A DNA stretch of 64,000 nucleotides from an uncultured Halothiobacillus sp. (lineage in GTDB: Bacteria; Pseudomonadota; Gammaproteobacteria; Halothiobacillales; Halothiobacillaceae): positions 13,417 to 77,416 of the forward strand of contig CAZZMW010000011.1 of the NCBI GenBank assembly GCA_964655215.1. The letters are read 5' to 3'. Below the pieces are notes generated by a model that ran no database searches, was not told the origin of the DNA, and saw nothing but the letters and a program-made list of their open reading frames with translations. Made by a program: the position numbers and the translations under genes. Positions 2,149 through 63,434 of the stretch are shown piece by piece (position 1 is the first letter of the stretch; every line of letters starts with the position of its first letter).

Positions 2149-2311
2149 TATGGCTCAAATCTTGTTCGGTTCACGCTTGGCGACAAACAAGGTTTGGGCA
2201 GCCTTTGTTTTATGTGTGTGCTCTGAATACTTATAAATCGTTCATAATCAAAATGAAGCGACAAGAAACAGACCTGGCACTGTGAATCTGGCCAGATCAA
2301 CAGGAGCGGAT

Positions 2312-3214
2312 ATGCGTAATTACACTACCTTTAGGCAACTTGAAATTTTCGAAGCTATTGCTCGGCTCGGAAGTTTTACCCGTGCCTCTGAAGAGCTTTT
2401 TCTGACGCAGCCAACGGTGTCCATGCAAATGAAGAAGCTATCGGAAATGGTTGGTGTTCCTTTGATCGAACAGTCGGGGAAGAAGATCTACCTGACAGAG
2501 GACGGACAGGAACTGGCGCAGGCAACGCGTGAAATTTTCGGCATCATGGATCGGTTTACAATGTCGGTTGCCGAAAGACAGGGTTTGAAGAAGGGCCAAT
2601 TGCGTCTGATGGCGATTACCACTGCTTCGTATTTTGCACCGCGTTTACTGGGCGAGTTCGCCAAGCTCTATCCGGGAATCGATGTGAGTTTGCGCGTCAC
2701 CAACAAGGAACAGGTATTGGCGAGTATTGCCAATAATCTGGATGATCTTTATCTGCTTGGCCAGCCACCCGAGGATATGGAAATCGAATCCACGCCCATC
2801 ATGGATAACCCAATTATCGTGCTGGCCGCGCCGGATCACCCTTTGGCCAATGAGAAAAACATAAGCCTCAAGCGCCTGGCCCAAGAACCGTGGCTGATGC
2901 GTGAAAAAGGCTCCGGTACCCGCAACGCCATTGAGCGAAGGTTCGCTGAATTGGGCATTACGGTTCGTCCACGACTGGAGTTGGGTAGTAACGAGGCCAT
3001 CAAGCAGGCGATTCTTACCGGACTCGGTATTTCAGCATTGTCGCGCGACACGCTTACACTCAATCAACCCGGTCAGTTCGCAATTCTGGACGTGCAGGGG
3101 TTTCCGATTCTGCGGCATTGGTATGCCATCTATCCTGCCGGTCGGAAACTTTCGGTTGCCGCGCGGGCATTCCTGGATTATTTGTTGGAGCGCCCCGAGC
3201 AAGTCAACACCTGA
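2312..3214 (+). CDS. LysR-family regulator, CbbR-like paralog 1
   Basis: N-terminal wHTH FRQLEIFEAIARLGSFTRASEELFLTQPTVSMQMKKLSE and a LysR substrate-binding domain. AGGAG sits 6 nt upstream of the ATG at 2312. Convergent with cbbO. Confidence 0.85.
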   Translation: MRNYTTFRQLEIFEAIARLGSFTRASEELFLTQPTVSMQMKKLSEMVGVPLIEQSGKKIYLTEDGQELAQATREIFGIMDRFTMSVAERQGLKKGQLRLMAITTASYFAPRLLGEFAKLYPGIDVSLRVTNKEQVLASIANNLDDLYLLGQPPEDMEIESTPIMDNPIIVLAAPDHPLANEKNISLKRLAQEPWLMREKGSGTRNAIERRFAELGITVRPRLELGSNEAIKQAILTGLGISALSRDTLTLNQPGQFAILDVQGFPILRHWYAIYPAGRKLSVAARAFLDYLLERPEQVNT

Positions 3215-3271: not shown

Positions 3272-5542
3272 CTATTTGGTCAACGCCATAAACAGCTGCG
3301 GTAAGCGTTCGGGCAGGCGCTCGATATGGTCGATGATCGTGTACTGCTGGCCGAATATGTCGCGAACATAATCGTCATCGCCGGTTTTCAAGCTGGCATC
3401 CAAACTTATGCAATAGGGGAAAATCCCCTGTTGATCGAGTTCCTTGACCGCTTGGCGAGCGTCCTCAATCAAAAGACGATCATCTGAAGTGTCCACGTCC
3501 GAAGGCTTGCCGTCGGTAAGGATCAGCATGAGTTTCTTGTCTGCCTTTTGGGCGCTGAGGTAATGGGCTGCGTGGCGCATTGCCGCGCCCATGCGGGTTG
3601 AATAGCCAGCTTCCATTTTCGCCAGACGGGCTTTGACCTCATCGTCCCAGCGTTCGCTGTAGCCTTTGATGTGCTGATAACGTACTTCGTGACGGGTGTT
3701 GGAATGAAAGCCAGCGATGGCGAAGGGGTCGCCGAGCTTGTCGATGGCCCAGGCCAGAAGTGATACGGCCTCCTGGCTGAGTTCAAGAATGGTCTGTTCA
3801 CTACCCGCCGCCTTTTCATTGAGCGATTCCGACAGGTCGAGTAGCAGCATGACGGCAATGCTGCGACCGTTGGTACGGTGACTCATATTGATGCGAGGGT
3901 CGGGGTTTGCGCCACTTTTGTAGTCGATCAGTGAGCGGATGGCCACGTCAAGATCCAGCTCACTGCCTTCTTCCTGATAGCGGATACGAACCTTGTCCTG
4001 CGGCTTGAGTGCGTCGAGCATTTTCTGGAGATGTTTCGCGAGAGCCGCATGTTTTTGCAGTAGACGGTCAATATCGGCGGCATTACCACTGGGGTGTAGT
4101 GCTTCATAGACGCTCACCCAATCCGGACGATAGCTTTGGCTGTTGTAATCCCACTCGGAATAATGGCGCGGTGGAAGGCCCTGAATTTCCTGTGGTTCGA
4201 TCTTGCGTTGTTCGTCGAAGGCTTCTTCCTCGTCGCCCGCTTCGATGAATTTCCACAGTTGACGGTTATCGTCACGGTACTCAATGACGGTATTATCGAA
4301 ATGAACCTTGGCGAACTGATCGCTCTGGCGACGCGTACGGGCCACATAACTCAGTGCCAGAAGGGCAACCTCATTGGTCGTTGTGGTTTCTTGCGCCATG
4401 AGCGTATTGAAACGCGCGACGAATTCATTGAGGTCGGCATCGTGGTAGCCGTGATCCGGGTCGAGCAGAGCCCGTGAGAGCATGGCGAGCCGATGGCGCA
4501 GACAGGAGGTGGTCTCCGGGTCGCAGGCATTCTCTTCCGGTTTGGGATGCAGTGCGAGAAAGAGTTTCCGCATACCGGGATATTCGCGAATCAGTAGCGT
4601 GTCGATGCGACAGTCTTCAAAGAACTCGACCGCCATGCGCTGGAATGGACTCCAGTTGTCAGCGATCTGCGCTTCGGACCAGCGACGGTGCCCAACGATG
4701 TGCGCGAGCATGGCACGGTAGCGATCAATGCCTCGGATACCATTACTGTCGTCGCATACATCCGGCAGTCGAATGCCGAGTTTGTCGTAATAAGGAATGG
4801 GCTTTCGTATTTCATCAAACGCGGTGGAGTAGGGCACCAATTGCTCGCTGTCCTGCCACAAAGCGCGCAGATACATATCAAGATTTCGCTCGTTGTCGAC
4901 CAGTAGCGTGCCATGCCGTTCGCGTTGTAGCACGGCGCGGCTGTCCGCTGATTGCAGGCTGAAGTAATCCTTCTGGCGTTCGGGATGGTTGTTGTAGTTG
5001 CGGATTCCATAATCCACCCAATTCTTCATGCCGGAGAGCGTGAGCAAGCTGAGCAGGTTCGGTGCCTGAGTCAGAAAGTCAGGTAATCCGGGACTGGGGA
5101 ATGTGGTGTGATGCCCATGGATCGAACCAGTGGTTTTCTCCATCAGATCCAGTGTGATATCCAGATATCCCTGAAGTTGTTCTGCCGATTGCAGCCGACG
5201 CGCTACTGGTGCCAGTGTGCGGATAAACGGATCAATGGCTCGGCCATTGGGCGATTTTTGCATGACACGGATGGTGCCCATAACGGCCGGAAGTGCGTAT
5301 TCACCTACTGCTCTTGCCGTTGCGGGCCATTCCTCCAAGAACGCCAGCAGTGGCTCCACCCCGCGCCCGAGTTTGCCAATCACGCGAGCGGCTTCGAGAT
5401 AGGCATCGATCCCTTCGGTTCCGAGAGATGCGAGTGCTTCGGTTATGCAGTCTTCGAAGATGGCTTCAGCCTGGGGAAACCGGGTGTCGAGCTTTGTCCA
5501 ATATGCCTGGAGCTGGGGATCCTGGGAAAGCGTGTTATCCAT
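3272..5542 (-). CDS. cbbO: RuBisCO activase subunit CbbO (vWA-domain protein)
   Basis: Directly downstream of cbbQ. C-terminal vWA with MIDAS-like LLLDLSES. Start placed at MDNTLSQDPQLQAYW; the upstream extension of the ORF overlaps the Cys-rich ORF. Confidence 0.85.
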   Translation of the reverse strand: MDNTLSQDPQLQAYWTKLDTRFPQAEAIFEDCITEALASLGTEGIDAYLEAARVIGKLGRGVEPLLAFLEEWPATARAVGEYALPAVMGTIRVMQKSPNGRAIDPFIRTLAPVARRLQSAEQLQGYLDITLDLMEKTTGSIHGHHTTFPSPGLPDFLTQAPNLLSLLTLSGMKNWVDYGIRNYNNHPERQKDYFSLQSADSRAVLQRERHGTLLVDNERNLDMYLRALWQDSEQLVPYSTAFDEIRKPIPYYDKLGIRLPDVCDDSNGIRGIDRYRAMLAHIVGHRRWSEAQIADNWSPFQRMAVEFFEDCRIDTLLIREYPGMRKLFLALHPKPEENACDPETTSCLRHRLAMLSRALLDPDHGYHDADLNEFVARFNTLMAQETTTTNEVALLALSYVARTRRQSDQFAKVHFDNTVIEYRDDNRQLWKFIEAGDEEEAFDEQRKIEPQEIQGLPPRHYSEWDYNSQSYRPDWVSVYEALHPSGNAADIDRLLQKHAALAKHLQKMLDALKPQDKVRIRYQEEGSELDLDVAIRSLIDYKSGANPDPRINMSHRTNGRSIAVMLLLDLSESLNEKAAGSEQTILELSQEAVSLLAWAIDKLGDPFAIAGFHSNTRHEVRYQHIKGYSERWDDEVKARLAKMEAGYSTRMGAAMRHAAHYLSAQKADKKLMLILTDGKPSDVDTSDDRLLIEDARQAVKELDQQGIFPYCISLDASLKTGDDDYVRDIFGQQYTIIDHIERLPERLPQLFMALTK

Positions 5543-5762
5543 GGCAGCCGCAGCTTCCTTTGCCGGAAATTTGGATGGGGGGGCACGGAACGCTGCCATA
5601 GGAGCAGAAGACACAGCAATCACCCGGCTTAGGGCGTAGCAACTCGTGACATTGCGTGCATTCATAAAACCATTGGCAAGCGTCGGTAGGCATGGTTTCT
5701 TGTTGCGCAAAGCCGCAATGCGGACAGGTGAGAACGGAGGTTGTGATGATTGATTGCTCCAT
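5535..5762 (-). CDS. small Cys-rich protein with GDCCVxC motif (75 aa)
   Basis: MEQSIITTSVLTCPHCGF...CQWFYECTQCHELLRPKPGDCCVFCSYGSVPCPP...CGCHG (12 Cys). GAGGTGG SD lies 3 nt upstream of the ATG. The start is 16 nt after the cbbQ stop, and the stop overlaps the cbbO ATG by 8 nt (ATGGATAA). Confidence 0.6.
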   Translation of the reverse strand: MEQSIITTSVLTCPHCGFAQQETMPTDACQWFYECTQCHELLRPKPGDCCVFCSYGSVPCPPIQISGKGSCGCHG

Positions 5763-5778
5763 TTCCACCTCGAGTAGG

Positions 5779-6582
5779 TTAGGCAAAGGTTGTGTCGATC
5801 GCATGATCCAGTGTTTCACGGATGTCGACATCATCGGTGATTGGGCAAACCAGCGCCATGCGGCAAGCATCTTGTGGCGACACACCATCCTTGATCAGGG
5901 TTGCTGCATAGACAAGCAGACGGGTTGAAATACCTTCGTCGAGTCCGTGTCCTTTCAGATTGCGGGCCACGTTGCCGATTTTCACCAACTTGGCGACCGT
6001 ATCGGACGCCATGCCGGTTTCCTTGGCCACAATCTCGGTTTCAAGTGCTGCATCCGGATAATCGAAATCGAAGGCGGTAAAACGCTGCTTGGTGGATTGC
6101 TTCAAATCCTTCATCAAGGTCTGATAGCCGGGATTATAGGAAATCACCAACTGGAAATCAGGATGTGCGTGGATCAGTTCGCCCTTTTTGTCCAGTGGCA
6201 GGGTGCGGCGATGATCGGTCAGAGGATGAATAACCACCGTGGTGTCCTGTCGAGCTTCAACTACTTCATCGAGATAGCAGATGGCACCGATACGAGCGGC
6301 GGTAGTCAACGGGCCATCAAGCCAGCGCGTGCCACCTTCGTCAAGCAGGTAGCGACCCACGAGGTCTGAGGCCGTCATGTCTTCATTACACGCCACCGTG
6401 ATCAGCGGTTTGCCCAGCTTCCACGCCATGTATTCGACAAAACGGGATTTGCCACAGCCGGTCGGACCTTTAACCATAACAGGCAGATGATTGCGGTAGG
6501 CCGACTCATACAGCGCCACTTCGTTTTTCTGCTGTTGATAGAAAGGTTCATGCTGGATTTTGTATTGTTCTGTATCGGTCAT
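5779..6582 (-). CDS. cbbQ: RuBisCO activase AAA+ ATPase CbbQ (MoxR class)
   Basis: Walker A GPTGCGKS, 267 aa, typical CbbQ/NorQ sequence. Located between cbbM and cbbO. Confidence 0.9.
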   Translation of the reverse strand: MTDTEQYKIQHEPFYQQQKNEVALYESAYRNHLPVMVKGPTGCGKSRFVEYMAWKLGKPLITVACNEDMTASDLVGRYLLDEGGTRWLDGPLTTAARIGAICYLDEVVEARQDTTVVIHPLTDHRRTLPLDKKGELIHAHPDFQLVISYNPGYQTLMKDLKQSTKQRFTAFDFDYPDAALETEIVAKETGMASDTVAKLVKIGNVARNLKGHGLDEGISTRLLVYAATLIKDGVSPQDACRMALVCPITDDVDIRETLDHAIDTTFA

Positions 6583-6727
6583 GGCGTTGTTCCCTATCGA
6601 TTTGGCTCGGAAGATTGCCCCTGTATGGTCGTCCTGAGAGGGCGGTCAAGGGCGGTGGGACTGAAGAAGCAAGCTGGGCGATGCACACATCTCGGCATGT
6701 GCATGGCTCAGATGGCCATAAGTCAGG

Positions 6728-6757
6728 CGTAAAACACCCCCGGCGAACCGAGGGTGT
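6728..6757 (-). terminator. hairpin + U-tract just after cbbM (terminator or attenuator before cbbQ)
   Basis: On the minus strand, ACACCCTCGG-TTCG-CCGGGGGTGT (10-bp stem with one G-U and a tetraloop) is followed by TTTTAC. It lies about 20 nt after the cbbM stop. Confidence 0.6.
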
Positions 6758-6778
6758 GTGTCTTACGCTAGGCGTCGA

Positions 6779-8158
6779 TTACTTGTGGACGCCCAGTTTT
6801 TCGCGCCAGCCCGGATAGAGCTTGTCGGCGTCTTTCGGGAAGGATTCGAATGCACGCGCAAATTCTTTGTGCTCTTTAGCGTATTCGATCGGATCGGCAC
6901 CGGCTTTCCAGCACTCGTAGGATTGACGCAGAGAGATCGCGCCAGCCGCCGGGCTGTCGATGTGGCCGTAAGAACCACCACCTGCGGTGTTGATGACGTT
7001 GCCGTGGCCCAGGTTCTCGAAGAAGCCGGGCAGACGCAGTGCGTTCATGCCGCCGGAGATGATTGGCGTGGTGGGCTTCATGCCGTACCACTTTTGGAAG
7101 TACACCGGACCTTGCGCTTCGTCACGCTCAATCATGTACGCGATGTTGCGGTCGTCGCCTTCGCCTTCCATCTTGCCGTAGCCCATGGTGCCCACGTGGA
7201 TACCGGAAGCACCTTGCAGACGGGAGATCTTCGCCAGAACGAACGCGGTGTAACCACGCTTGGATGATGGAGAAGTGATCATGCCGTGACCGGCACGGTG
7301 GTAGTGCAGATACTGACTTGGGTATTGACGACGGGCCGTGGTGATCATGCCTGGGCCGCCAACGAAACCGTCGACGAGGAAGGCGAGTTTGTCGGCATCG
7401 GGACCGAATACTTCCAGTGCGTAATCGGCACGGGCCAGCATTTCATAATGGTCGTCAGCGGTGATGTTCATGGAGAACAACTTGGCTTGACCGGTTTCGT
7501 CTTGGGCACGTTTCATTGAGTCGTACACGAGCGGCAGAACTTTCTTCAGCGGGCAGAATACCTGGTTGCCTTGTGGTTCATCGTTCTTGATGAAGTCGCC
7601 ACCCAGCCAGAACTGGTATGCAGCAGCGGCAAATGGCTCAGGGCGCAGGCCCAGTTTCGGCTTGATGATGGTACCGGCAATGTAACCGCCGTTTTCGATC
7701 GGACGACCGAGGATGCGCCACAGGTTGGAGATGTCGGTGGCTGGGCCGTCGAACATCTGGATGCAACGCTCTGGAACATAGAAATCGATCATCTGACCGT
7801 ATTCGATGTCGCCCATGCCTTGGTTGTTACCGATAACCAGGGTCAGGAACGACACGATCATGAAGCGACCGTCAGTGACGTTGCGGTCGAACAGTTCGAT
7901 CGGATATGCAATGCGCATGTCTTCGGTGGCTTCATCGATGTGATAAACCAGCGCGTCAACACCTTTGGTGAAGTCGTCAGTGGTTGAAACTTCTACGTTG
8001 GTACCGGTTGAAGATTCAGCCGCGAAGTGAGCGGCGGCTTCGAGGTAACCGTGGCCTGCTTTTGGCTTCATTTTGTAGGCGACAAGAATGTGCTTGCCAC
8101 CGGCAATCAGATCTTCTTCTTTCAGGCTGAGGTCGGCGTAACGCGCGGATTGATCCAT
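6779..8158 (-). CDS. cbbM: RuBisCO form II large subunit
   Basis: 459 aa, collinear with Rhodospirillum rubrum CbbM as recalled ([54 protein letters not shown]-like). No small-subunit gene follows. Confidence 0.95.
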
Positions 8159-8283: not shown

Positions 8284-9186
8284 ATGCGCCGACTAACTTT
8301 GCGTCAATTGGTGGTCTTTGAGGCCGTGGCAAGACATCTGTCCTTCTCCAAGGCAGCGGCAGAACTTCACTTGAGCCAGCCCGGTGTTTCCATGCAGGTA
8401 CGTAAGATTGAATCATTCGTTGGGTTGCCACTCACGGAACAGGTCGGAAAACAAATCTTTCTGACCGAAGCGGGGCGAAATGTTCAGCATGCAGCCGGAA
8501 ACATATCAGCTCAGCTGACTGATCTTGGCAATGCCCTGGCGCGACTCAAAGGCGTTGAAGAGGGGCAATTGAATATTGCGGTGACCTCTACGGTGAATGC
8601 GGTGGCAACGGGAATCCTAGCCGGATTCCGTGGACGTTACCCTAAAGTGTCGATCCACCTTGAAGTATCCAACCGGGCCGAAGTGTTGAGTTTGTTGTCA
8701 GAAAACCGGATTGACCTAGCTATCATGGGGCAGGTTCCCGATGGTTTGGGTCTTGAGGCGACACAATTCATGGATAACCCGCTGGTTGTGATCGCACCGG
8801 TCGATCACCCCTGGGTCGGCCGGTCTGATATTCCGATCGCCGAACTTGCGAACGAATCCTTTCTCGTGCGAGAGGATGGCTCGGGTACACAGGGCGCTAT
8901 GGAGCGGTTCTTTTCAGCCAGAGAGTTGAAAATCCACAAAAGCATGCAAATGAACAGTAACGAGGCGATCAAAATGGCCGTTCAGGCCGGATTGGGCTTG
9001 GGGATCATCTCGAAACAGACATTGGAAATGGAGTTGATGCTCAAGCGTCTGGCCGTACTTTCTGTAGAAGGATTCCCGATCATGCGTCATTGGTTCATCG
9101 TTCACCGCAGTGACAAACTCCTCTCACCAGTTGCCTCGGCTTTCAAGACCTACCTATTGGCTGAGTCGGCCACCCTTGTGCAGTGA
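8284..9186 (+). CDS. cbbR: LysR-family regulator CbbR (divergent from cbbM)
   Basis: wHTH LRQLVVFEAVARHLSFSKAAAELHLSQPGVSMQVRKIES. Classical divergent arrangement with a 125-bp shared control region. Confidence 0.85.
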   Translation: MRRLTLRQLVVFEAVARHLSFSKAAAELHLSQPGVSMQVRKIESFVGLPLTEQVGKQIFLTEAGRNVQHAAGNISAQLTDLGNALARLKGVEEGQLNIAVTSTVNAVATGILAGFRGRYPKVSIHLEVSNRAEVLSLLSENRIDLAIMGQVPDGLGLEATQFMDNPLVVIAPVDHPWVGRSDIPIAELANESFLVREDGSGTQGAMERFFSARELKIHKSMQMNSNEAIKMAVQAGLGLGIISKQTLEMELMLKRLAVLSVEGFPIMRHWFIVHRSDKLLSPVASAFKTYLLAESATLVQ

Positions 9187-9394
9187 TTTTTCTTCCGGCG
9201 AATTTTCTGGATGGGTCTAAAAGACTGCCAACCTTTTGGGGAAAGCCTCTGTTCTGAATTCAGTCGCCAAGCTGTAATCAATAACGGTTACGGTGGTTTT
9301 TTTATCAGCTGCAAAGTATGGGTTCGAATGCGCGTTAATTGACGATAAGAGATACAGTGGAAGAAATGTGATCTGTATCCGATTCGGGGGCGTT

Positions 9395-12100
9395 ATGAGC
9401 AGTCATCAAACGGTAGCCGATCAGCATCGTATTCCTCTTGAAGATCTGACGCGGCGATTGAACTGCGATCTCGAGGGGCTTGCCAGCCGCGATGCGGAAA
9501 AGCGGCTTTCTGAATTTGGCAGCAACGAACTGCATGTTCAGAAAGATACGCCTGAAATAATCAAATTCTTACGTCAATTCAGCAACTTCTTTGCTCTCCT
9601 GCTGATTGCAGGTTCCATTCTGGCCTTCCTTGCGGATTATCTGCAGCCGGGTGAAGGCAACTTTTATATTGGGGTCGCGCTGCTGGTAGTGGTATTCCTG
9701 AATGCGCTGTTTTCTTACATACAGCAGCATCAAGTCGACCGCATCATGGAAAGTTTCCGCCACATGCTCCCGTCCATGGTCTCCGTATGGCGTGATGGGG
9801 CAATGGTTCGTATTGATGCTCGATTCGTCGTGCCGGGCGATGTGATTGTGGTGGAGGAGGGCGATCGCATACCGGCTGATGGTCGCCTGATTGAGGTGAG
9901 CCAACTCAAGGTCGATCACTCATCCTTGACCGGTGAGAGCGAGCCACAGCTTCGCACGCTGGAATGTACCAGTGACGATCTGCTGGAAAGTCGAAATATG
10001 GTGTTTTCCGGCACACTGGTTCATAGCGGTAATGGCAAGGTGCTGGTTTACGGCACGGGTATGAACACGCAAATAGGGCAGATCGTTCAACTCACAAAAG
10101 AAACCGGATCGGTTGAAACGCCGATACGAAAGGAGTTGAGTTATTTCATCCATATCATTTCCGGCATTGCCATTACGCTCGGTCTGTTGTTTTTTGTCCT
10201 CAGTATTCTTCTGGGTAAACCACTTATCGGTAGCCTGATTTTCGCGATCGGAATCATTGTCGCCAACGTGCCGGAAGGTCTGTTGCCTACGGTGACACTG
10301 GCACTCACCATGGCGTCCAAACGCATGGCCAAAAAGAATGCGCTGATCAAGAATCTGGAAGCGGTTGAAACTTTGGGCTCCACCACCGTGGTGTGTACCG
10401 ACAAAACCGGGACGATAACCCAGAACCGAATGAAGGTAACGACACTGGTATTGGGTGAACACGAGTGGTCAGCCTATCAGGATGGTCTGGCCGAAGCGGA
10501 CGGTTTCGACGAGGCCTGGGCAACTATCGTTCATTGCAATAACGCACGTTTGAATGAGGACGGTTATCTCGGTGACCCGACTGAAGGATCCATGTTGGTT
10601 TTCGCGAAACGGGTGAAGCCTGAAAGGGGTTTTACGAACCTCTTGCCACGCATCCACGAAAGTCCATTCGACTCTTCAACCAAACGAATGATTACCACCC
10701 ATCGTGGTGAGCATGGGGTGCCCAATCTTGCGTACATGAAGGGCGCTCCTGAAATTGTTTTCGAAAAATGCTCGCATATGCTGCGTTATGGCGAGCTTGC
10801 CGAGTTTGATGTCGGTGCTCGTCAAAAGGCGCTGGAACTTTATGAAGTCCTGGCTGCACGTGGGGAGCGTGTCCTTGCTTTGGCATACAAGACGACCTTG
10901 GCGGAAGAGTCCGATGAGCATGGATTCATCTATATCGGTTTGCTTGGTATGCTTGATCCGCCACGTACCGAAATTCCGGACGCAATCGAAAAGTGCCGCA
11001 ACGCGGGCATTCGCGTATTCATGATCACAGGCGATTACCACACCACCGCCGAGTCCATTGCCCGCCAGGTTGGACTTTATACCGGTGATGGTCAGGTGAT
11101 CGTCGGCGATAAATTGCTTGAAATGAATGACGACGAGCTATCTCACCTGCTGGATAGTCGTGAGCTTGTTTTTGCCCGTACCACGCCATTGCAAAAACTC
11201 ATGATTGTTCAGGCTCTACAAAAGAAAGGTGAAATTGTTACGGTCACCGGCGATGGTGTGAATGATGCGCCGGCGTTGAAGAATGCCGACATGGGCGTGG
11301 CCATGGGCGTGTCGGGAACGGAGGTCGCAAAGGAGGCGGCCGACATGGTATTGATGGACGACAATTTCGCCACCATCGTCAATGCTATTGAAGAAGGGCG
11401 CACCATCTTCTCAAACATCAAAAAGTTCATCGCCTACATTCTGACCAGCAACATTCCAGAGATATTGCCCTTCATTGCCTTTGTCGCACTCGGTGCACCA
11501 TTGGCGCTCACCGTCGTACTGATACTGTCGATCGACCTCGGAACCGATCTCTTGCCGGCACTTGGGTTGGGGCGGGAACGGCCTGAAAGCGATGTGATGA
11601 AACAACCGCCTAGAAAACGTGATGAACGGTTGCTCACCTGGCCGTTGCTGGGCATGAGTTATGGCGTAATCGGTGTCATTCAGGCAGCCGCCGGTTTCTT
11701 TGCCTTTTTTGTCGTACTGCATCGGGGCGGATGGACCTGGGGAGCTCCATTGCCTGAAACTGACCTGCTCTACAGAACCGCGGTCACCGCATTTTTCGCA
11801 GCCGTCGTCATTTGCCAGGTCGCTGATGTGCTGATTTGCCGAACGCGTAGACAAAGTATTCTTTCAGCCGGTATTTTCAGCAACAAGCTGATCTGGTTCG
11901 GGATTTTTGTTGAATTGGCTTTAGTGGCCGCAATCTCTCACCTTTCTTTCCTGCAACCGTTCTTCGGGACGGCGCCGATTGGCTGGTTTGAAGTTTCACT
12001 CGCATTACCTTTCGCTGCGGCTATTTTGCTTGGTGATGAATTCCGACGCTGGATGATTCGGCGCGGAAATGGTTTTGTACAGCGTTGGTTTTCCTGGTGA
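9395..12100 (+). CDS. P-type ATPase, type II (Na+/K+-ATPase alpha-like / cation pump)
   Basis: [46 protein letters not shown] and AYILTSNIPEI motifs resemble eukaryotic Na,K-ATPase alpha chains. Ten predicted TM segments. Start taken at MSSHQTV. Confidence 0.85.
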   Translation: MSSHQTVADQHRIPLEDLTRRLNCDLEGLASRDAEKRLSEFGSNELHVQKDTPEIIKFLRQFSNFFALLLIAGSILAFLADYLQPGEGNFYIGVALLVVVFLNALFSYIQQHQVDRIMESFRHMLPSMVSVWRDGAMVRIDARFVVPGDVIVVEEGDRIPADGRLIEVSQLKVDHSSLTGESEPQLRTLECTSDDLLESRNMVFSGTLVHSGNGKVLVYGTGMNTQIGQIVQLTKETGSVETPIRKELSYFIHIISGIAITLGLLFFVLSILLGKPLIGSLIFAIGIIVANVPEGLLPTVTLALTMASKRMAKKNALIKNLEAVETLGSTTVVCTDKTGTITQNRMKVTTLVLGEHEWSAYQDGLAEADGFDEAWATIVHCNNARLNEDGYLGDPTEGSMLVFAKRVKPERGFTNLLPRIHESPFDSSTKRMITTHRGEHGVPNLAYMKGAPEIVFEKCSHMLRYGELAEFDVGARQKALELYEVLAARGERVLALAYKTTLAEESDEHGFIYIGLLGMLDPPRTEIPDAIEKCRNAGIRVFMITGDYHTTAESIARQVGLYTGDGQVIVGDKLLEMNDDELSHLLDSRELVFARTTPLQKLMIVQALQKKGEIVTVTGDGVNDAPALKNADMGVAMGVSGTEVAKEAADMVLMDDNFATIVNAIEEGRTIFSNIKKFIAYILTSNIPEILPFIAFVALGAPLALTVVLILSIDLGTDLLPALGLGRERPESDVMKQPPRKRDERLLTWPLLGMSYGVIGVIQAAAGFFAFFVVLHRGGWTWGAPLPETDLLYRTAVTAFFAAVVICQVADVLICRTRRQSILSAGIFSNKLIWFGIFVELALVAAISHLSFLQPFFGTAPIGWFEVSLALPFAAAILLGDEFRRWMIRRGNGFVQRWFSW

Positions 12101-22288: not shown

Positions 22289-24775
22289 GTGACAAAATTC
22301 AGTGAACTGGATATTGGTGTAGATGGCATGACTTGCGCGTCGTGTAGCTCGCGAGTGGAGCGTGGTCTTGCCAGCCTTCCAGGTGTGGCTTCCGCCAGTG
22401 TGAATCTCGCCACTGAACAGGCAACGATCCAATTCGACCCACAACAGGTAAGTCCTGCCGAGGTAGTCGAAGTCATCAGGGATGTTGGATATACACCTGT
22501 TGTTGCCGAGATAGATCTCGCTATCGAAGGGATGACGTGCGCTTCTTGCGTCGGGCGAGTTGAGCGTGCACTGAAACATTTGCCTGCTGTACTGGATGCC
22601 GAGGTGAATCTAGCGACCGAACGCGCCCATGTTCGCTATATTCCAGCGATGGTTGGTCCGGATGAGTTGATTGTCGCGGTAACTGGGGCTGGCTATGGTG
22701 CCAGCCTTGCCGAAGGTGTTGAGTCGGGTGATAACCGTCAGCATGAGAACCTCATCGCCATGAAGCGTGATGTGATTCTGGCTGTTAGCTTCTCCCTGAT
22801 GATCATGTTGTTGTCCATGGGCGTCATGTTCATACCGGCATTGGGACGAATGTTGGTTGGAATCAGCCCGTTCCAGGATTTTTGGGATTGGGTCCAACTG
22901 CTCCTTGCCTCAGTTGTACTGTTCGGCCCCGGTCGCCGTTTTTTCAAACCGGGGCTCATCGCCTATCGCCACCTATCGCCTGACATGAACTCACTTGTCG
23001 CGACCGGTACTGGCGCGGCCTACGCTTATAGTGTGTTGGTTCTCGTTCTGCCTGCCTTGTTTCCGACCGAGGCCAGGCATGTTTATTTTGACTCGTCTGC
23101 GGTGGTCATCGCGGCCGTATTGGCAGGCAAATATCTTGAGGCACTTGCCAAAGGCAGAACGTCCGCTGCTATTCGCAAACTCATCGATTTACAGGCGAAA
23201 ATGGCACACATCCTGGATGAGTCCGATGTCGAGCGAGACGTGCCTTTGGCTCAGTTGCACAAAGGTGATCGATTTGTCGTGCGCCCTGGAGAGCGAATTC
23301 CGACGGATGGGCGAGTAATTGAGGGACGCGCCCATATCGACCAATCGATGCTGACGGGAGAACCATTGCCTGTCGCCAAAGGGCAGGGCGATGAGGTCGT
23401 CGGGGGTACGGTCGATCAGGATGGACGGTTGGTGATTGAGGCGACTTCAGTTGGTCGTGATACCGTTCTGGCTCAGATCATCAAGCTGGTTGAAAGTGCT
23501 CAGACAGGTAAGCTGCCGATACAGGGTCTGGCCGATCGCGTTGTTCGCGTGTTTACGCCCGTTGTGCTGGCCATAGCGCTTATTACATTCATCACCTGGA
23601 TTGTACTGACCGGCAATGTGAGTGTGGCGCTTGTCGCCGCAGTCGCCGTGCTGGTGGTTGCCTGTCCCTGTGCCATGGGATTGGCAACGCCCGCCGCCAT
23701 TATGGTGGGCACGGGGCGTGCAGCAGAGTTGGGTGTGCTTTTTCGCAAAGGTGAAGCATTGGAAGCACTTTCCCGAGTGGATACGGTTCTGTTCGATAAG
23801 ACGGGGACATTGACTGAAGGTCGTCCGACTTTATCGGATATCGGTGGCCCATCACCCGATGAAGCGCTACGTATGGCGGCGGCTCTTGAAGGTGCATCCG
23901 AGCATCCTCTGGGGCGTGCTATTGTGACTGCTGCAGCACAGCGCGGTGTCGTTACGCTTGTTGCCGAGGACTTTCGTTCAGTCGTCGGTGATGGGATTGA
24001 AGGCATGATTGAAGGACGCAAGGTGCGTGTCGGTTCCCGCCATTTTCTCGAGCGTGAAGGTGTGGAGCTTGGCTCAAATCTAACTGAAGCCGCACGGTTT
24101 GAAGAAGCTGGCCAAACGGCAGTATTTGTCTCTGCAGATAGCACGTTTCTCGGCTGGCTGGCGATTGCTGATCGAGTCAAACCCGAAGCAAAAAGCGTGG
24201 TTGATGCCTTGCGCCAGCGTGGTATCAACATCGCCATGGTGACCGGCGATGCCCAGCGGACCGCTCGAACGGTTGCCGCATCGCTGGGTATTGATGAAGT
24301 GCACGCAGAAATTCGACCACAGGATAAGGCCAAGGTGGTCATCGAATTTCAATCTAAAGGACGTCGCATTGCATTCGTTGGCGACGGTATCAATGATGCG
24401 CCTGCTTTGGCTCAAGCTGATGTCGGCATTGCGCTGGCTTCGGGAACAGATATCGCCATCGAGGCAGCCGATGTCACCCTTACTCGTGGCCAATTGCGCG
24501 AGGTGGTTACGGCAATAACGGTCGCTCGACACACCTTATCCAATATTCGAGGCAATCTGTTTTGGGCCTTCTTTTACAATATTCTTTTGATCCCCATTGC
24601 TGCGGGCGTAGCCGTTTCAATCGGCATTCATCTGAATCCGATGGTGGCCGGTGTGGCAATGGGCTTATCCTCCGTGTTTGTACTGGGGAACAGTCTTCGT
24701 CTCAAAGGGCTCAAAGCGTTTCAACCAGACCAGATCACCCAATCAACCGATATTTCGTCTCACCCTAAAACCTAG
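22289..24775 (+). CDS. copA: Cu(I)-exporting P1B-type ATPase
   Basis: Two N-terminal HMA domains (GMTCASC x2), CPC motif ([11 protein letters not shown]), [20 protein letters not shown] start. Confidence 0.92.
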
Positions 24776-44530: not shown

Positions 44531-46399
44531 ATGAGCATAAGGAATCAATCCATGAACCAAGATAGTACAAGCACGAACTCAGAGAAACTCTCTAACCGTG
44601 ATGCCGCGTTGGCCCGGAGAAGAGCCCTGTCTCTTTACGGTAAAAAAGGCCTGCCAGCAGGCGAAGCAACGCGTAAACCCACCCCAAGCGCCAAGCCGAC
44701 CAGTGCCAGCAAGGTAGCAGAAACGTCTTCTGCTCCGGCACCCACGCCGGTTGCGACTCAGAACACCAGCACAGCTCCTGCTGGTGCCGAACCGCATGTT
44801 TGCAATTGCGGGACTCAAGCGACACACGAAGTCAAAACGACCGTGCTCGTATCCAATCCTGCCCCGATTTCCGCAGCACAGCAACGCCGGATCAATCAAT
44901 CGCTGCGTGGACGTGGGAACAATCCCCCGGCACGTCCTTGCGGCCGTGTCCCGCAGAAGGTCAATTTCGGCACAACGCTATCAGGCGCCCAGGTCAGCGG
45001 TAGTCAGCTTGAGCGGTCTGCTGTCACTACAGGCAACGAGTCCGGCAGCTGCCGCACGATCACCGGCACCGAGTACATCGGGGCGGAGCAATATAACGAG
45101 TTTTGCGGCACGAAACCATCACCATCTCCAGCGAAGGTCAGTTCGAGCAGCACAAGCCGCGGTGGCCGTGTAACGGGCACCGAGATTGGTCGCAGCCAGA
45201 AGGTTTCAGGTGACGAAACGGGCACTTGCTCACGCGTTACCGGGACCGAATATCTGGCCGCCGAACAAACCCGTACATTCTGTGGCACATCACCCGAGCC
45301 GCATCATGAAAAATCCGGCTTCGGCATGACTGCTCTGAAGAACAAGGTAAGCGGCACTGATTTGAATCGTGGCGTCGAGGTAACTGGCGGGGAAACCGGT
45401 GCGAACCGTGTCATCACCGGTAGCGATTACACCGATACCACCGCGTTGCGCCGTAAAACCGACGCTGCGCCGAAGAAAGTTGAAATCACCCACACCAGTG
45501 CGGGTGGCACAGTCAGCGGAACCGTCGTCGGTCGCTCTGCGAAAGTATCCGGTTCTGAGAAAGGTGCGTGCGAACGCATTACCGGCTCCGATTATTTGAG
45601 TAGCGAGGAATTCTCTTCCTTTTGCCGTGAGCAGCCGTATCAGCCGCCTGCGAAAGTAGGTGTATCACCCACACTCAACGGCCAAAACGTATCAGGTACG
45701 CAGCTGGGCCGCTCATACAGCGTGACTGGCGATGAATACGGCGCATGCAAACCCGTAACCGGCTCGTCCTATATCGGCGCGGATCAATACGCCGAGTTTT
45801 GCGCAGACCGAGAAGTCACTGAAGCGAGTAACCGTATGCAGCGTGCTCAGTACGTGATTCCGGCGAGTCGCCAATCGACGAACTCCACCGATGCGTCTAC
45901 GGATTCTGTTCGTAAAACTCAGTGTGGCGGCTTTTCAATCGTCTCACCTGCGCACTCGTCTCAAGACGCTGCCCAGCGGATTACCGGCAGTGCCTATGGT
46001 GGTACCGATCGAATCACCGGGTCACTCGCACGGGCCACCGGCAAGGTTTCCGGTACGCCTGAATTTCGTTACCGCGATGGCGTTCAATCCTCTGGTGAAG
46101 CCATGACAGAGGAGGCAAAGGAACGCGGCCCGGAGCGCATTACCGGTGACGGTCGCGAACGCAACGTCACAGGCGATGCCTGGGATCGTGGCGACCGAGT
46201 CACCGGTACTGAAGGTTTGTCGGCTGCACGTCGCAACCCGACCTGGCGTGGCGAGATGCGCCCTAGCGGTCCATCACGCAGTGCACGGGAATTCCGCAAG
46301 GCTGAACAGCCGGAAGCCAAGCCAAGTCGTGTCACGGGTTGCAGCGGCAGCAGCATGACGGGTGCCGCTGTCACGATGTCTGGCGGCGCGCGCGGCTAA
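44531..46399 (+). CDS. csoS2: carboxysome scaffold protein CsoS2 (start 44531 or 44552)
   Basis: N-terminal basic R..ALARRRALS..GKKG peptide. Repeated VSG....GR...V(T/S)G.E.G.C..(I/V)TG(T/S)(E/D)Y...E...FC middle repeats. C-terminal (R)ITG/VTG repeats. Followed by csoSCA. Confidence 0.9.
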   Translation: MSIRNQSMNQDSTSTNSEKLSNRDAALARRRALSLYGKKGLPAGEATRKPTPSAKPTSASKVAETSSAPAPTPVATQNTSTAPAGAEPHVCNCGTQATHEVKTTVLVSNPAPISAAQQRRINQSLRGRGNNPPARPCGRVPQKVNFGTTLSGAQVSGSQLERSAVTTGNESGSCRTITGTEYIGAEQYNEFCGTKPSPSPAKVSSSSTSRGGRVTGTEIGRSQKVSGDETGTCSRVTGTEYLAAEQTRTFCGTSPEPHHEKSGFGMTALKNKVSGTDLNRGVEVTGGETGANRVITGSDYTDTTALRRKTDAAPKKVEITHTSAGGTVSGTVVGRSAKVSGSEKGACERITGSDYLSSEEFSSFCREQPYQPPAKVGVSPTLNGQNVSGTQLGRSYSVTGDEYGACKPVTGSSYIGADQYAEFCADREVTEASNRMQRAQYVIPASRQSTNSTDASTDSVRKTQCGGFSIVSPAHSSQDAAQRITGSAYGGTDRITGSLARATGKVSGTPEFRYRDGVQSSGEAMTEEAKERGPERITGDGRERNVTGDAWDRGDRVTGTEGLSAARRNPTWRGEMRPSGPSRSAREFRKAEQPEAKPSRVTGCSGSSMTGAAVTMSGGARG

Positions 46400-46423: not shown

Positions 46424-48010
46424 ATGGATACCCGCCATCGCCTGAAATGTCAGCCTAAGCCGAGAGCCCCGATCGGGTTGGCGACAACCGTTCGAGCAGA
46501 GACTGTCCAGCACAGTAGCATCCCGAGCTGGCCTCAGCGAGTCAGTTTCTGCCCGCCGGGTTTCGCCCAAGATCGAGACGGTGAGTGTGTCAGCACGCAG
46601 TGTGCTCCAGGCGCTCATCCTCTGGCTGACTTGAAGCAGAACGAGCGTCTTGCTGAGTATGAATGCCTTGTGAAAGCAAGCTTTTCAGACATCGTGCCGA
46701 CACTGAAGCAGATTGCTGCACTGCGGCAAGAGGCTGATTTCGAAACCCGCGCGCAGGAAATTGCACGTGTGCGTCTGGGCATCGATCTGGATGGGTCGGT
46801 TCTGGCCAATGCCTGGATCGCTCCGCTTGATATGAAAAAGCTCTACGGCAGCAGTGTGCTGAAGACGTTCTGCAAGCTGGCACAGGAAGATGTCCTGCAA
46901 CAAGACGGTTGCACCGAGGCCGAGGAAGTTATCCGCTTCTTCATCGAATGCGGCTTCCATGAAGTGAATGTCAGTGCCTGCGCTGATGGTCGGCTCAAAG
47001 GATTCATTAATTACATCCTGCGCCTGCCTCAGGAAGCGGTACCCCGGCATCAGTTCTACGCGGGCACGTCGTTCGATGTCGAGGTGAACGTCAAGCAGTG
47101 GACGGCGACGGAGTTGCGTCGTTTCCGAGAAGGTTTGCCGACGACCACTGATTCGGGAACCCGGTATCTCAAGATCGCTGCGTACCACTTCAGCGGTTCA
47201 GATCCTGACCATGAAGGGTGTGCCGCTCACGGGAGTTCGGATGCCAAGGCCATGCAGGCAGCGCTTGATCGGTTGCGTGCATTCAGCACAGCGATTCAAA
47301 ACGGGTTCTGCTGCGGGGCTTCGGTCGCCACGCTGTTGATTGGTGTAGACACTGACAACGATGCCATTCGTATTCATGTGCCTGATGCCAATGGCGACAT
47401 CAGTCTGGATTGCTACATCGACAACATGGCCTTGTATCAAGAGACGGCTCAACTGACCAAGCTCGAAGCACAGTGGAAACTGAATGCCATTGTTGAGGAA
47501 ACCGCGCGTCGGTTCCAACGGAGTGCGCCTGAAACAGGCATGCGTCGTCTGATCAAGCAGTTGCTTACCAACAACTTGTCCCAGATCGACTACGTCTGTC
47601 AGTACCACAACGGTCGTTATGAGGATATTGGCCACGCCGAGCGATTCATCAGTGTCGGTGACGGTTTTGAAGAAGTTCATTTACGCAACCTTGCCTACTT
47701 CAGCTTCATGCAGACGTTGGAAGAAGGGGCGGCGGACATGGACGTCGGTATCAAGATCTTCACTCGGTTGAACATCGCCAAGGGTTTGCCCGTACCGGTA
47801 GCCATTCACTACCGATACGACGACCAAGTGCCGGGCGCGAGAGAGCGGGCAGTGGCACGTTGCCATCGGGTCAAGGCAGCCATCGCGGCGCGCTATCCGG
47901 ATCTGATGCACGAGGGGTTGCTGGTTTTCGGCATGAGCGTGCAGGCAGAACAGTCCGGTAGCGCACTGGAAACCGTGTCAGATAACGACCAAAACAACCA
48001 GGCGCATTGA
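46424..48010 (+). CDS. csoSCA: carboxysomal carbonic anhydrase CsoSCA (CsoS3)
   Basis: VSACADGRLKG and YHFSGSDPDHEGCAAHGS Zn-ligand blocks. Collinear with the Halothiobacillus CsoSCA sequence as recalled. Confidence 0.92.
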   Translation: MDTRHRLKCQPKPRAPIGLATTVRAETVQHSSIPSWPQRVSFCPPGFAQDRDGECVSTQCAPGAHPLADLKQNERLAEYECLVKASFSDIVPTLKQIAALRQEADFETRAQEIARVRLGIDLDGSVLANAWIAPLDMKKLYGSSVLKTFCKLAQEDVLQQDGCTEAEEVIRFFIECGFHEVNVSACADGRLKGFINYILRLPQEAVPRHQFYAGTSFDVEVNVKQWTATELRRFREGLPTTTDSGTRYLKIAAYHFSGSDPDHEGCAAHGSSDAKAMQAALDRLRAFSTAIQNGFCCGASVATLLIGVDTDNDAIRIHVPDANGDISLDCYIDNMALYQETAQLTKLEAQWKLNAIVEETARRFQRSAPETGMRRLIKQLLTNNLSQIDYVCQYHNGRYEDIGHAERFISVGDGFEEVHLRNLAYFSFMQTLEEGAADMDVGIKIFTRLNIAKGLPVPVAIHYRYDDQVPGARERAVARCHRVKAAIAARYPDLMHEGLLVFGMSVQAEQSGSALETVSDNDQNNQAH

Positions 48011-52260: not shown

Positions 52261-53934
52261 ATGACCGCAGAACTGTTGGCCAAGGCTACTGGGCTGATGT
52301 TACTGGCCATGCCGGTGACAATGCTCGCTTTCTCGCTTCCGAGTGCCCGCACGGGTGTGGATGCCGCCCTGATTTATCGTCGGCGTGTGGCATCAGCAAC
52401 CTTAATCGCGTTTGTACTCGCCCTAGTGTCTGTGCTGATGTATGCCTTCGGGTCGCGCAGTGATGTATTCATGCCGACGATACCTTTGCCCGGCTTAGAT
52501 AGAAGCATCGATCTGCATGTCTCCATTGCCGTCAATGGTATGACCCTATTGTTGGCTTCGCTGGTCAGTTTTGTATTGATGATCATCGCGCGATTCAGCA
52601 TTCAGTATCTCGATGGTGATCCGCACCAGGCGCGTTTTTTCCGTTTGTTAGGGTTCACCGGCGGCTGGTTTCTGTTGGTTGTTATTGCCGGGAACATGGC
52701 ATTGTTTACATTCGCGATCCTGATCACCGGTTTTACTCTACATCGGTTGCTGGGGTTTTATTCTGAGCGGCCCCGCGCCATCATGGTCACGCACAAGAAA
52801 TCGATTTTCAGCCGCACGGCAGATGCGCTGTTGATGATCGCCACGGTGCTAATCGGCCTGCAAGTCGGCAGTCTGGAGTTCTCGGCGATTACCGCCTTTG
52901 TGCATACCCACGACCAGTTGCCTCTGGCAATGCATGTGGCCGCCTGGATGATCGTTCTGGCCGCCATTCTCAAGAGCGCCCAGTTTCCCTTTCATGGTTG
53001 GCTGATCCAGGTCATGGAAGCGCCGACACCGGTTTCGGCACTGATGCATGCCGGCATCGTCTATAGCGGGGCGATCATCGTACTTCGTACCAGCAACCTC
53101 TTGGTTGCTGACGGGTATGCCCACGTTCTGTTGGCCGTCGTGGGCCTGACCACGCTGATCATCGCCTCGCTTGTCATGTTGACCCAGTCAGCCATCAAGT
53201 CGTCACTGGCCTGGTCCACGGCTGCGCAGCTGGGTTTTATGTTGCTGGAACTCGGCCTTGGCCTGTTCGCTCTCGGGTTGCTGCACCTCGTGGGCCACTC
53301 GTTATACAAGGCACATGCATTTCTGTCTTCGGGTGGAATTGCCGATCAACTGCGCCAGCCCAAGATTTTCAAATATCGCCCTGTTTCCCTTGCGGCGTGG
53401 ATGGTCACCTTCCTGGGTAGCCTGGTAATCGTTCTAGGCTTGGTCATCGGCATGGGGTTGAGCTTGCGAGATGAACCCACGCTGCTGGCCTTGGTCGTCA
53501 TCATCGCGCTGGCTACCGCGCAACTGGTGCTCAAGGTACTAAGCTACGGCACCGGCGGGGAGGTGGTGACGGCTATTGTGACTGCGACGGCCATGTCTGC
53601 GATCTACTTTGTCTTGCATGCGTTGTTCATGCACGGTTTTGCCCAGGAATTGGCACCGCTGCCCACCAAGGTATCACCCCTGAACTTGGGCCTGATCGTG
53701 TTGACTATAGCCGGATTCGTCGCCGTGGCCTGGTTGCAGGGGCCGGGCCGTGAACGGATGGCGCGCAGCAGTCAGACGGCCTTGTTCATCCACTTGTATA
53801 ACGGGTTATACGTCGATCGTTGGGTAGAGCGTTTGTCCTATCGTTTGTGGCCGGAAAAAGTAGGGCGCATGACCCGGATGCCGGATGCTGAATTATCTCG
53901 AAAGTCCCGTTGTACCAACGATACCCAAGTCTGA
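52261..53934 (+). CDS. dabB: DabB, NuoL/MnhA-like proton-conducting membrane subunit of the DAB inorganic-carbon pump
   Basis: 557-aa polytopic protein with the NuoL/Mrp antiporter core (FPFHGWL..AMEAPTPVSALMHAG). Immediately followed by the DUF2309 gene. Confidence 0.85.
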   Translation: MTAELLAKATGLMLLAMPVTMLAFSLPSARTGVDAALIYRRRVASATLIAFVLALVSVLMYAFGSRSDVFMPTIPLPGLDRSIDLHVSIAVNGMTLLLASLVSFVLMIIARFSIQYLDGDPHQARFFRLLGFTGGWFLLVVIAGNMALFTFAILITGFTLHRLLGFYSERPRAIMVTHKKSIFSRTADALLMIATVLIGLQVGSLEFSAITAFVHTHDQLPLAMHVAAWMIVLAAILKSAQFPFHGWLIQVMEAPTPVSALMHAGIVYSGAIIVLRTSNLLVADGYAHVLLAVVGLTTLIIASLVMLTQSAIKSSLAWSTAAQLGFMLLELGLGLFALGLLHLVGHSLYKAHAFLSSGGIADQLRQPKIFKYRPVSLAAWMVTFLGSLVIVLGLVIGMGLSLRDEPTLLALVVIIALATAQLVLKVLSYGTGGEVVTAIVTATAMSAIYFVLHALFMHGFAQELAPLPTKVSPLNLGLIVLTIAGFVAVAWLQGPGRERMARSSQTALFIHLYNGLYVDRWVERLSYRLWPEKVGRMTRMPDAELSRKSRCTNDTQV

Positions 53935-63308: not shown

Positions 63309-63434
63309 TGTGGTGCTCCTTTGTATCCCTGTGTTGGGGATACATGGTGATAGGTGCGATCCCGAAGAAAATATTTCCTTGAAACCCACCTCTAGGCTGT
63401 CTCAGCAGCAACGGTTTCATCTCAAATACACCCT

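Follow-up and report, generated by a model that had tools for sequence, protein, structure and literature searches.

The CbbQO-type RuBisCO activase of Acidithiobacillus ferrooxidans (Q2O2; Tsai et al. 2015) has a CbbQ6:CbbO1 composition and is active from two pure proteins (PMC4660213). The genes flanking the small open reading frame (ORF) described here are orthologous to the cbbQ and cbbO genes linked to form II RuBisCO, for which the usual order is cbbM-cbbQ-cbbO. Whereas the A. ferrooxidans activase is made of two proteins only, here a third small gene fills the gap between cbbQ and cbbO, one that is missing from most syntenic loci, and no third small gene at this position is described in the CbbQO literature searched. 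The other close reference is the NCBIfam family NF041374 (GDCCVxC domain-containing (seleno)protein), which includes both cysteine and selenocysteine forms, and whose name, along with expression or metal-binding data for any of its members, was not found in the literature searched. The present ORF has no mer or ars genes beside it and is wedged between cbbQ and cbbO.

Within the 64,000-nt window, i.e., the whole stretch of DNA that was analysed, the ORF is part of a minus-strand unit which opens with the form II RuBisCO gene cbbM (6779..8158), continues with cbbQ (5779..6582), encoding a 267-aa AAA+ MoxR-type activase motor with AAA_5 and CbbQ_C domains, and ends, after the ORF itself (5535..5762), with cbbO (3272..5542), encoding a 756-aa VWA-domain adaptor. 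A CbbR-like regulator, assigned to the LysR type from a domain match, is encoded divergently on the plus strand (8284..9186) and, given its position, presumably controls the ORF-carrying operon. The first-pass annotation had located the ORF correctly, with a translation of 75 aa plus stop, and the motifs that it listed (CPHCG, C..FYEC.QC, GDCCVFC, PCPP, and CGCHG) are all present, although the cysteines number 11 rather than the 12 it had counted.

The junctions on both sides of the ORF are tight. Between the cbbQ stop (TAA, 5781-5779) and the ORF start (ATG, 5762-5760), the minus strand carries only a 16-nt spacer, CCTACTCGAGGTGGAA (5763..5778), with a Shine-Dalgarno sequence GAGGTGG at 5771-5765. 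This spacer is too short for a promoter or terminator to fit, and no promoter- or terminator-like site was found on the minus strand of the cbbQ-ORF gap. At the other end, the ORF stop (TAA, 5537-5535) and the cbbO start (ATG, 5542-5540) share an 8-nt minus-strand overlap, ATGGATAA (5535..5542), and the Shine-Dalgarno-like run serving cbbO, AAGGAAG, falls within the 3' end of the ORF. Both the dedicated Shine-Dalgarno sequence and the 8-nt overlap had been noted in the first pass and hold. Together they suggest that the ORF is co-transcribed with the cbb genes and probably translationally coupled with cbbO. The earlier expectation of a stoichiometric output of its product relative to the activase subunits is loosely worded, as these subunits are themselves present at 6:1 (PMC4660213). 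An upstream cbbO start at 5710, which had been raised as a potential problem, does not exist as an ATG, the codon there being TTG; the start at 5542 stands, since orthologous CbbO proteins begin at the equivalent position and in one congener (G005) a TAA interrupts the cbbO frame 5' of the ATG equivalent to that at 5542. Dual coding of the ORF by an N-terminally extended CbbO was accordingly rejected.

The family membership which the first pass had proposed from the GDCCVxC motif is borne out by a profile score of 111.4 bits against NF041374 (E 1.7e-32; curated cut-off, 40 bits), with residues 9-64 of the ORF protein covering profile positions 1-56 of 58, and the ORF is the single match in a scan of the whole genome. 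All 17 invariant columns of an 89-sequence family alignment are retained, including C13, C16, C29, C35, C38, C49, C50, C53, and C60, with the GDCCVFC motif at residues 47-53, and the invariant proline, methionine, serine, and glutamine positions are likewise those of the family. Given this match and these columns, the ORF is not a chance reading frame. It represents the cysteine form, as no in-frame stop (TGA) occupies a cysteine position, which leaves its membership unaffected. The size and a cysteine-bearing C-terminal tail are also shared with the family. This tail usually ends in CC, whereas that of the ORF (ISGKGSCGCHG) is family-like as far as CGC and ends in CGCHG, its last two codons being borrowed from the start of cbbO, with which the stop also overlaps. 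One position conserved in more than 90% of the family, G17, is replaced by D or N in G005 and G002. Searches of the ORF protein against Pfam and against anti-phage defence families returned no match. The protein contains no long hydrophobic stretch and is therefore probably soluble.

The distribution of the ORF across genomes does not follow that of the activase. Within the genus, it is found in the cbbQ-cbbO gap of G000, G013, and G005, and beside remnants of cbbQ and cbbO in G002 (4 of 14 genomes). In 11 relatives whose cbbM-cbbQ-cbbO genes are syntenic, this gap contains no such ORF; these are seven congeners and four genomes from two other genera of the family (G003, G012, G009, G010, G006, G008, G001, G014, G023, G019, and G016). 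None of the 160 nearest family loci has a cbb gene next to the family member, and a sample of 400 genomes from the class, 172 of them with a CbbO-like gene and 69 with a GDCCVxC gene, yielded no other GDCCVxC-cbbO adjacency. Across the lineages sampled, the ORF thus does not accompany cbbQ and cbbO as an activase component would be expected to. Because otherwise syntenic gaps lack the ORF, the accessory role in CbbQO function that had been suggested for its product is not supported; instead, confinement to a few closely related species gives it the appearance of a captured passenger rather than a general part of the activase, and the "unrelated passenger" that had been offered as the alternative fits best.

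Phylogenies provide a consistent picture of how this distribution arose. In the locus tree, the ORF-less G003 is nested within the ORF-bearing clade as sister of G005 (100% bootstrap), and its genome retains GCGGCTGC, matching the 3' end of the ORF, directly before the cbbO ATG. This combination points to one gain and one later loss, the latter leaving cbbMQO intact. In a FastTree phylogeny of the family alignment, the four cbb-linked copies form one clade (support 0.987) that does not group as sister with the other copies from the same bacterial family. An origin by duplication of the other copy in the genus was rejected, as the merC-linked copy of G013 is only ~70% identical and not sister to the cbb-linked ones. 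A foreign base composition was also looked for and not seen, the GC3 of the ORF (0.59) lying within the range of neighbouring genes (0.58-0.67).

Elsewhere, the family gene often comes after merT-merP, merC, or arsR-type genes. Of the 80 nearest genome loci, about 20 have it directly 3' of a MerT gene and an HMA (MerP-type) gene, a few others adjoin ArsR-type regulators, and the second GDCCVxC copy of G013 sits after merC; among the nearest loci, this mer association is seen in only about one case in four, and the remaining contexts are heterogeneous. The ORF itself is not in a mer-type operon, its neighbours being cbbQ and cbbO, and searches of this genome detected neither MerT nor MerC, and no true MerA or Hg-type MerR above cut-off. 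By analogy with these contexts, and from its cysteine pattern, the ORF protein presumably binds a thiophilic metal.

We favour, with moderate confidence, a reading in which the ORF is a horizontally acquired gene for a soft-metal-binding mini-protein that was taken up into the cbb operon and is expressed along with it as a passenger. A GDCCVxC gene would have entered the lineage from outside by horizontal transfer, and a single insertion into the short cbbQ-cbbO spacer, in a recent ancestor shared by a few of the species in the genus, would have fused its last codons onto the start of cbbO. Lacking a promoter of its own, it would share a transcript with cbbM-cbbQ-cbbO, presumably controlled by the CbbR-like regulator, and have its translation directed by its own Shine-Dalgarno sequence, with cbbO translation probably restarting at the overlapping ORF stop. 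In the protein, an N-terminal pair of zinc-ribbon-like knuckles (CPxC ... CxxC) may pack against a second cluster composed of C29, the vicinal C49-C50, C53, C60, and the tail cysteines, which most likely binds thiophilic metals such as Hg(II). Selection on this function of its own would then retain the gene as an operon passenger, and we infer that it acts independently of CbbQO.

An unlikely alternative is that the ORF is a young leftover, without function, of a mobile cassette of the mer or ars type, tolerated in the spacer and yet to decay. Its low synonymous divergence does indicate youth, its presence in the genus is patchy, with a deletion in G003, the partner mer genes are missing from this genome, and in G002 its Shine-Dalgarno sequence is weakened to GAGGTAA. 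Purifying selection on the four cbb-linked copies argues against this: they have accumulated 9 nonsynonymous and 12 synonymous events where 79% nonsynonymous is expected under neutrality, a significant synonymous excess (P = 3e-4), and every invariant cysteine is kept in the four species. The state of the locus in G002 points the same way, as cbbM is gone, only 33 codons of cbbQ remain, and cbbO carries a frameshift and has lost codons 152-591, yet the ORF is intact, with a dN/dS between G002 and G005 of 0.16 compared with 0.43 for the cbbO remnant. An intact ORF in this one genome could be luck, since the target is only 225 nt.

The synonymous divergence of the ORF is itself anomalous. Its dS values (0.045-0.27) are 2-16 times below those of the flanks (0.49-0.75) and of rpoB (0.27-0.53); the rpoB rate would predict 10 synonymous differences, and 2 are observed (P 0.002). 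G000 and G013 differ at 5 positions in 216 nt of the ORF compared with 8-20% in the flanks. Across the four species, only 4 sites vary in a core of ~150 nt. Low dS as a trait of the family was considered and rejected, as the dS of the family gene in the sister genus (0.45) is close to that of its CMAS neighbour (0.54). Such values are not what a plain old passenger would be expected to show, and could mean that selection at this very site recently carried the ORF from species to species; the cbb locus is visibly mosaic between species.

Two further readings address this anomaly. The first, which we consider distinctly unlikely, is that the ORF was co-opted in the ORF-bearing subclade as an accessory of the form II activase or as a tuner of its expression, either through an action of the mini-protein on CbbO, CbbQ, or CbbM, such as guarding the MIDAS-dependent adaptor in a thiol/metal or redox capacity, or by setting the CbbO dose through the stop/start overlap, and that the resulting benefit spread the insert through several species by recombination. 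The tight packing and overlap with cbbO, the restriction of the low-divergence island to the ORF, the synonymous deficit relative to rpoB, the mosaic locus, and purifying selection on the copies all speak for such a role. Conversely, the gap is without the ORF in 11 relatives and in all other sampled lineages, G003 lost the ORF with cbbMQO intact, G002 keeps it though its form II system is dead, CbbQO has no need of a third factor in vitro (PMC4660213), and some cbbM stretches are as conserved as the ORF in two of the three species pairs. The second reading, to which we attach a similarly slim chance, is that the insert, having landed in one species, swept several already diverged ones by short-patch recombination, a translated cysteine-rich ORF being advantageous at this exact site; the advantage would lie in producing a thiol/metal guard alongside form II RuBisCO and the activase, or in a CbbQ:CbbO ratio reset by stop-start coupling, and such a sweep would account for the dS deficit relative to flanks and rpoB. 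That the low divergence instead stems from a nucleotide-level element over the ORF (an RNA structure, an internal cbbO promoter, or a second frame) is highly improbable: the near-invariant core would fit, but the predicted fold is no more stable than those of shuffled sequences (z = -0.22), there is no Rfam match, the ORF strand carries no promoter-like site, the cbbO-frame extension is interrupted by the TAA in G005, and the protein clearly belongs to the GDCCVxC family.

On the passenger reading, this locus illustrates that a mini-protein gene can be tightly coupled in translation between two activase genes without its product being an activase subunit, and shows that GDCCVxC genes can exist apart from any mer system, under what would be carbon-fixation control. 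It also constitutes a natural experiment for an uncharacterised family, with the gene alongside cbbQO (G000, G013, and G005), the gene without cbbQO (G002), and cbbQO without the gene (G003). The anomalously young or constrained ORF in a recombining cbb locus is, in addition, a small and testable population-genetic puzzle.

Zinc-ribbon modules of the RNA polymerase subunit 9/TFIIS type (PDB 1qyp) carry two CxxC knuckles on beta-hairpins, as predicted for the ORF protein in an AF2 model (pLDDT 82; strands at residues 8-12 and 19-23), although this likeness is not significant by sequence, 1qyp being the best PDB profile match at a weak E of 0.011, nor by Foldseek, which returned nothing at E <= 1e-3 and only weak rows corresponding to zinc modules. 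The second half of the protein, with the CC pair and five further cysteines, has no solved structural counterpart. Reductase-less mer modules (Tn5563-type merRTP) offer a parallel in gene order, as a member of the same small family closes these metal-handling operons, whereas the ORF is not beside mer genes, and its expression would follow the control of CO2 fixation rather than metal sensing.

The 75-codon open reading frame (ORF) at 5535-5762 is the third of four consecutive minus-strand genes, lying between cbbQ (5779-6582) and cbbO (3272-5542) and downstream of the form II RuBisCO gene cbbM (6779-8158), with two LysR genes nearby, a divergent LysR-type regulator at 8284-9186 and another at 2282-3214. 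It is a genuine gene: against NCBIfam NF041374, 'GDCCVxC domain-containing (seleno)protein', its product scores 111.4 bits (cut-off 40), and it keeps all 17 columns (9 of them Cys) that are invariant in an alignment of 89 family members from relatives and public genomes. The family name given in the first-pass annotation is thus correct and every Cys motif it named is present, although we count 11 Cys rather than the 12 it claimed. No Pfam model was found for the protein.

The ORF starts 16 nt after the cbbQ stop, preceded by GAGGTGG, and its TAA stop lies within ATGGATAA, whose ATG is the cbbO start. It had been suggested that cbbO might instead start at an ATG at 5710, so that the frames overlap; that codon is a TTG, up to which the cbbO frame is open. 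A start upstream of 5542 is disfavoured because CbbO orthologues of ORF-less relatives begin at the 5542 ATG position with the same 15-residue N-terminus before a conserved YW, because just 18 nt separate cbbQ from the cbbO ATG in the ORF-less congener G003, and because a TAA interrupts the upstream frame in the ORF-bearing congener G005. Complete frame overlap therefore does not apply as an argument against the ORF.

An AlphaFold2 model based on the family alignment (mean pLDDT 82) places CPHC and CTQC on two predicted beta-hairpins, with two predicted short helices around the CC pair and PCPP. Foldseek of the model against the PDB returned nothing at E <= 1e-3, the weak rows belonging to zinc modules from MCM, RNA polymerase I and ribosomal proteins, and the sole match in a PDB-sequence profile search was a weak one to the 1qyp zinc ribbon (E 0.011). 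A zinc-ribbon-like N-terminal half joined to a Cys cluster without a match is a reasonable reading, and the product would be a small, probably soluble, Cys-rich protein that probably binds soft metals.

The first-pass annotation had proposed a possible accessory of the RuBisCO activase CbbQO. Among 14 genomes of the genus, the order cbbQ-ORF-cbbO occurs in three (this genome, G013 and G005), and in a fourth, G002, the ORF adjoins remnants of both genes. Seven congeners (G003, G012, G009, G010, G006, G008 and G001) and four genomes from two further genera in the family (G014, G023, G019 and G016) carry cbbM-cbbQ-cbbO without it. By match end-points, the distance from cbbQ to the cbbO match in these 11 genomes is about 10-210 nt, or about 780 nt in G008, and no GDCCVxC match falls inside any of these gaps (for G008 as judged by match positions). 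By the first-pass annotation's own measure the accessory reading fails, because the ORF is missing from these otherwise syntenic gaps. A GDCCVxC gene occurs in 18 of the 54 genomes of the bacterial family, far from cbbQ wherever comparable. A 400-genome sample of the class, rather than the whole class, contained a CbbO-like gene in 172 genomes and a GDCCVxC gene in 69; among the matches listed, besides which there are 206 weaker CbbO-like ones, only the genome studied here carries both on one stretch. One weak match in this sample (G351:C745:38210-38389), with one internal TGA and one internal TAA, may be a selenocysteine form or else a broken copy. No conclusion here depends on G348, an unpublished genome of the sample. 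Neither the best 80 of more than 588 family loci in genome contigs nor the best 80 of more than 590 in metagenome contigs had cbbQ, cbbO or cbbM nearby. Over the genomes sampled, the ORF does not look like a general CbbQO component.

Neighbours of the best 80 genome loci instead include MerT (20) and HMA, MerP-type, proteins (21), usually in the order merT-merP-GDCCVxC, along with a few ArsR-type regulators and a miscellaneous remainder. A mer-like module exists within the same genus, where a second, approximately 70% identical copy in G013 directly follows merC (locus L012, G013:C1:89379-92579, 1489-2117); several small unassigned ORFs accompany it. In three sister-genus genomes (G022, G024 and G017; loci L006, L009 and L010), a cyclopropane-fatty-acid-synthase-like methyltransferase gene precedes the GDCCVxC gene by 15-81 nt, an arrangement that is old and vertically inherited because the two genes have equal dS. 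The GDCCVxC gene is single-copy in the genome studied here, in which no MerT or MerC was found and no MerA or Hg-type MerR scored above cut-off. The ORF is therefore an orphan, with the cbb operon as its only visible means of expression. The window also encodes three P-type ATPases (9293-12100, 22289-24775 and 61263-63389), the second of which, roughly 17 kb away from the ORF and with two N-terminal HMA domains, is likely a Cu/heavy-metal exporter.

A single clade (support 0.987) unites the four cbb-linked copies; the other copies in this bacterial family are not its sister, so the gene was acquired from outside. In a cbbQ+cbbO nucleotide tree, the hosts of the cbb-linked copies other than G002 group with G003 against other congeners, and G003 is sister to G005, both with 100% bootstrap. 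The 18-nt spacer of G003 terminates, immediately before the cbbO ATG, in GCGGCTGC, identical to the C-G-C codons of the ORF at the same offset; since CGC or CC tails also end other family members, this spacer end belongs to the insert, and G003 is therefore read as a deletion derivative. The history is best read as a single gain followed by a single loss that left cbbMQO intact. G002 (locus L206, G002:C46, 1480-2830) is the mirror case: cbbM has been lost, cbbQ is reduced by deletion to its last 33 codons with a mutated stop, cbbO has a 1-nt deletion leading to a stop after 14 codons and lacks codons 152-591, and the divergent LysR gene survives as a fragment. No form II-type cbbQ was found elsewhere in that genome, and the ORF persists intact between the remnants, now downstream of a sodium:dicarboxylate symporter gene.

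That the ORF is a neutral young remnant, a reading to which its loss from G003 would be congenial, is unlikely: the events separating the four copies number at least 9 (nonsynonymous) and 12 (synonymous) against a neutral expectation of 79% nonsynonymous (P = 3e-4), with pairwise dN/dS of 0.16-0.39. Between G002 and G005, dN/dS is 0.16 for the ORF vs 0.43 for the dead cbbO remnant, on small numbers. Co-option within this subclade, with which the shared operon position is consistent and against which the opposite fates in G003 and G002 count, is somewhat less probable still.

Synonymous divergence of the ORF is low (dS 0.045-0.27) compared with rpoB for the same pairs (0.27-0.53) and with cbbQ (0.49-0.72) and cbbO (0.62-0.75) for pairs among this genome, G013 and G005, and divergence falls sharply at both ORF borders. 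The ORFs of this genome and G013 differ at 2 synonymous positions, where the rpoB rate predicts about 10 (P 0.002) and the cbbQ rate about 21. Candidate explanations were ruled out by sister-genus copies (a family trait, dS there being like the neighbour's), RNA fold and Rfam checks (RNA structure), a four-species alignment (a second reading frame) and a composition check (odd base composition). A nucleotide element overlapping the ORF is highly improbable. For two of the three pairs, parts of cbbM show comparable conservation, which tempers the anomaly. Comparing 3272-8158 with four relatives' loci (L203, L204, L205 and L206), we found that the downstream LysR gene of G002 is closest to G013 (dS 0.36) and its cbbO remnant to G005 (dS 0.09; rpoB 0.37), and that, relative to G003 and G005, cbbM of this genome has diverged less than its cbbQ. 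The cbb locus is thus a mosaic across the genus, produced by recent recombination between species at carbon-fixation genes, which makes it plausible that recombination recently spread or homogenised the insert; some constraint on the sequence is the alternative.

We favour a captured passenger that would be kept for its own function, share a transcript with cbbM-cbbQ-cbbO and use its own Shine-Dalgarno sequence for translation, ribosomes ending at its TAA being positioned to restart at the cbbO ATG. In the window, form II RuBisCO, carboxysome and inorganic-carbon uptake genes cluster within about 50 kb, including CsoS2 (44531-46399) and the carbonic anhydrase CsoSCA (46424-48010) of an alpha-carboxysome, and a Proton_antipo_M protein (52261-53934) and DabA (53966-56401) of a DAB inorganic-carbon pump. 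The published descriptions of cbb clusters that we examined include no such ORF among their genes. The published activase is a CbbQ6:CbbO1 complex built from two pure proteins (PMC4660213), whereas the locus described here has a third small gene in the gap between the two.
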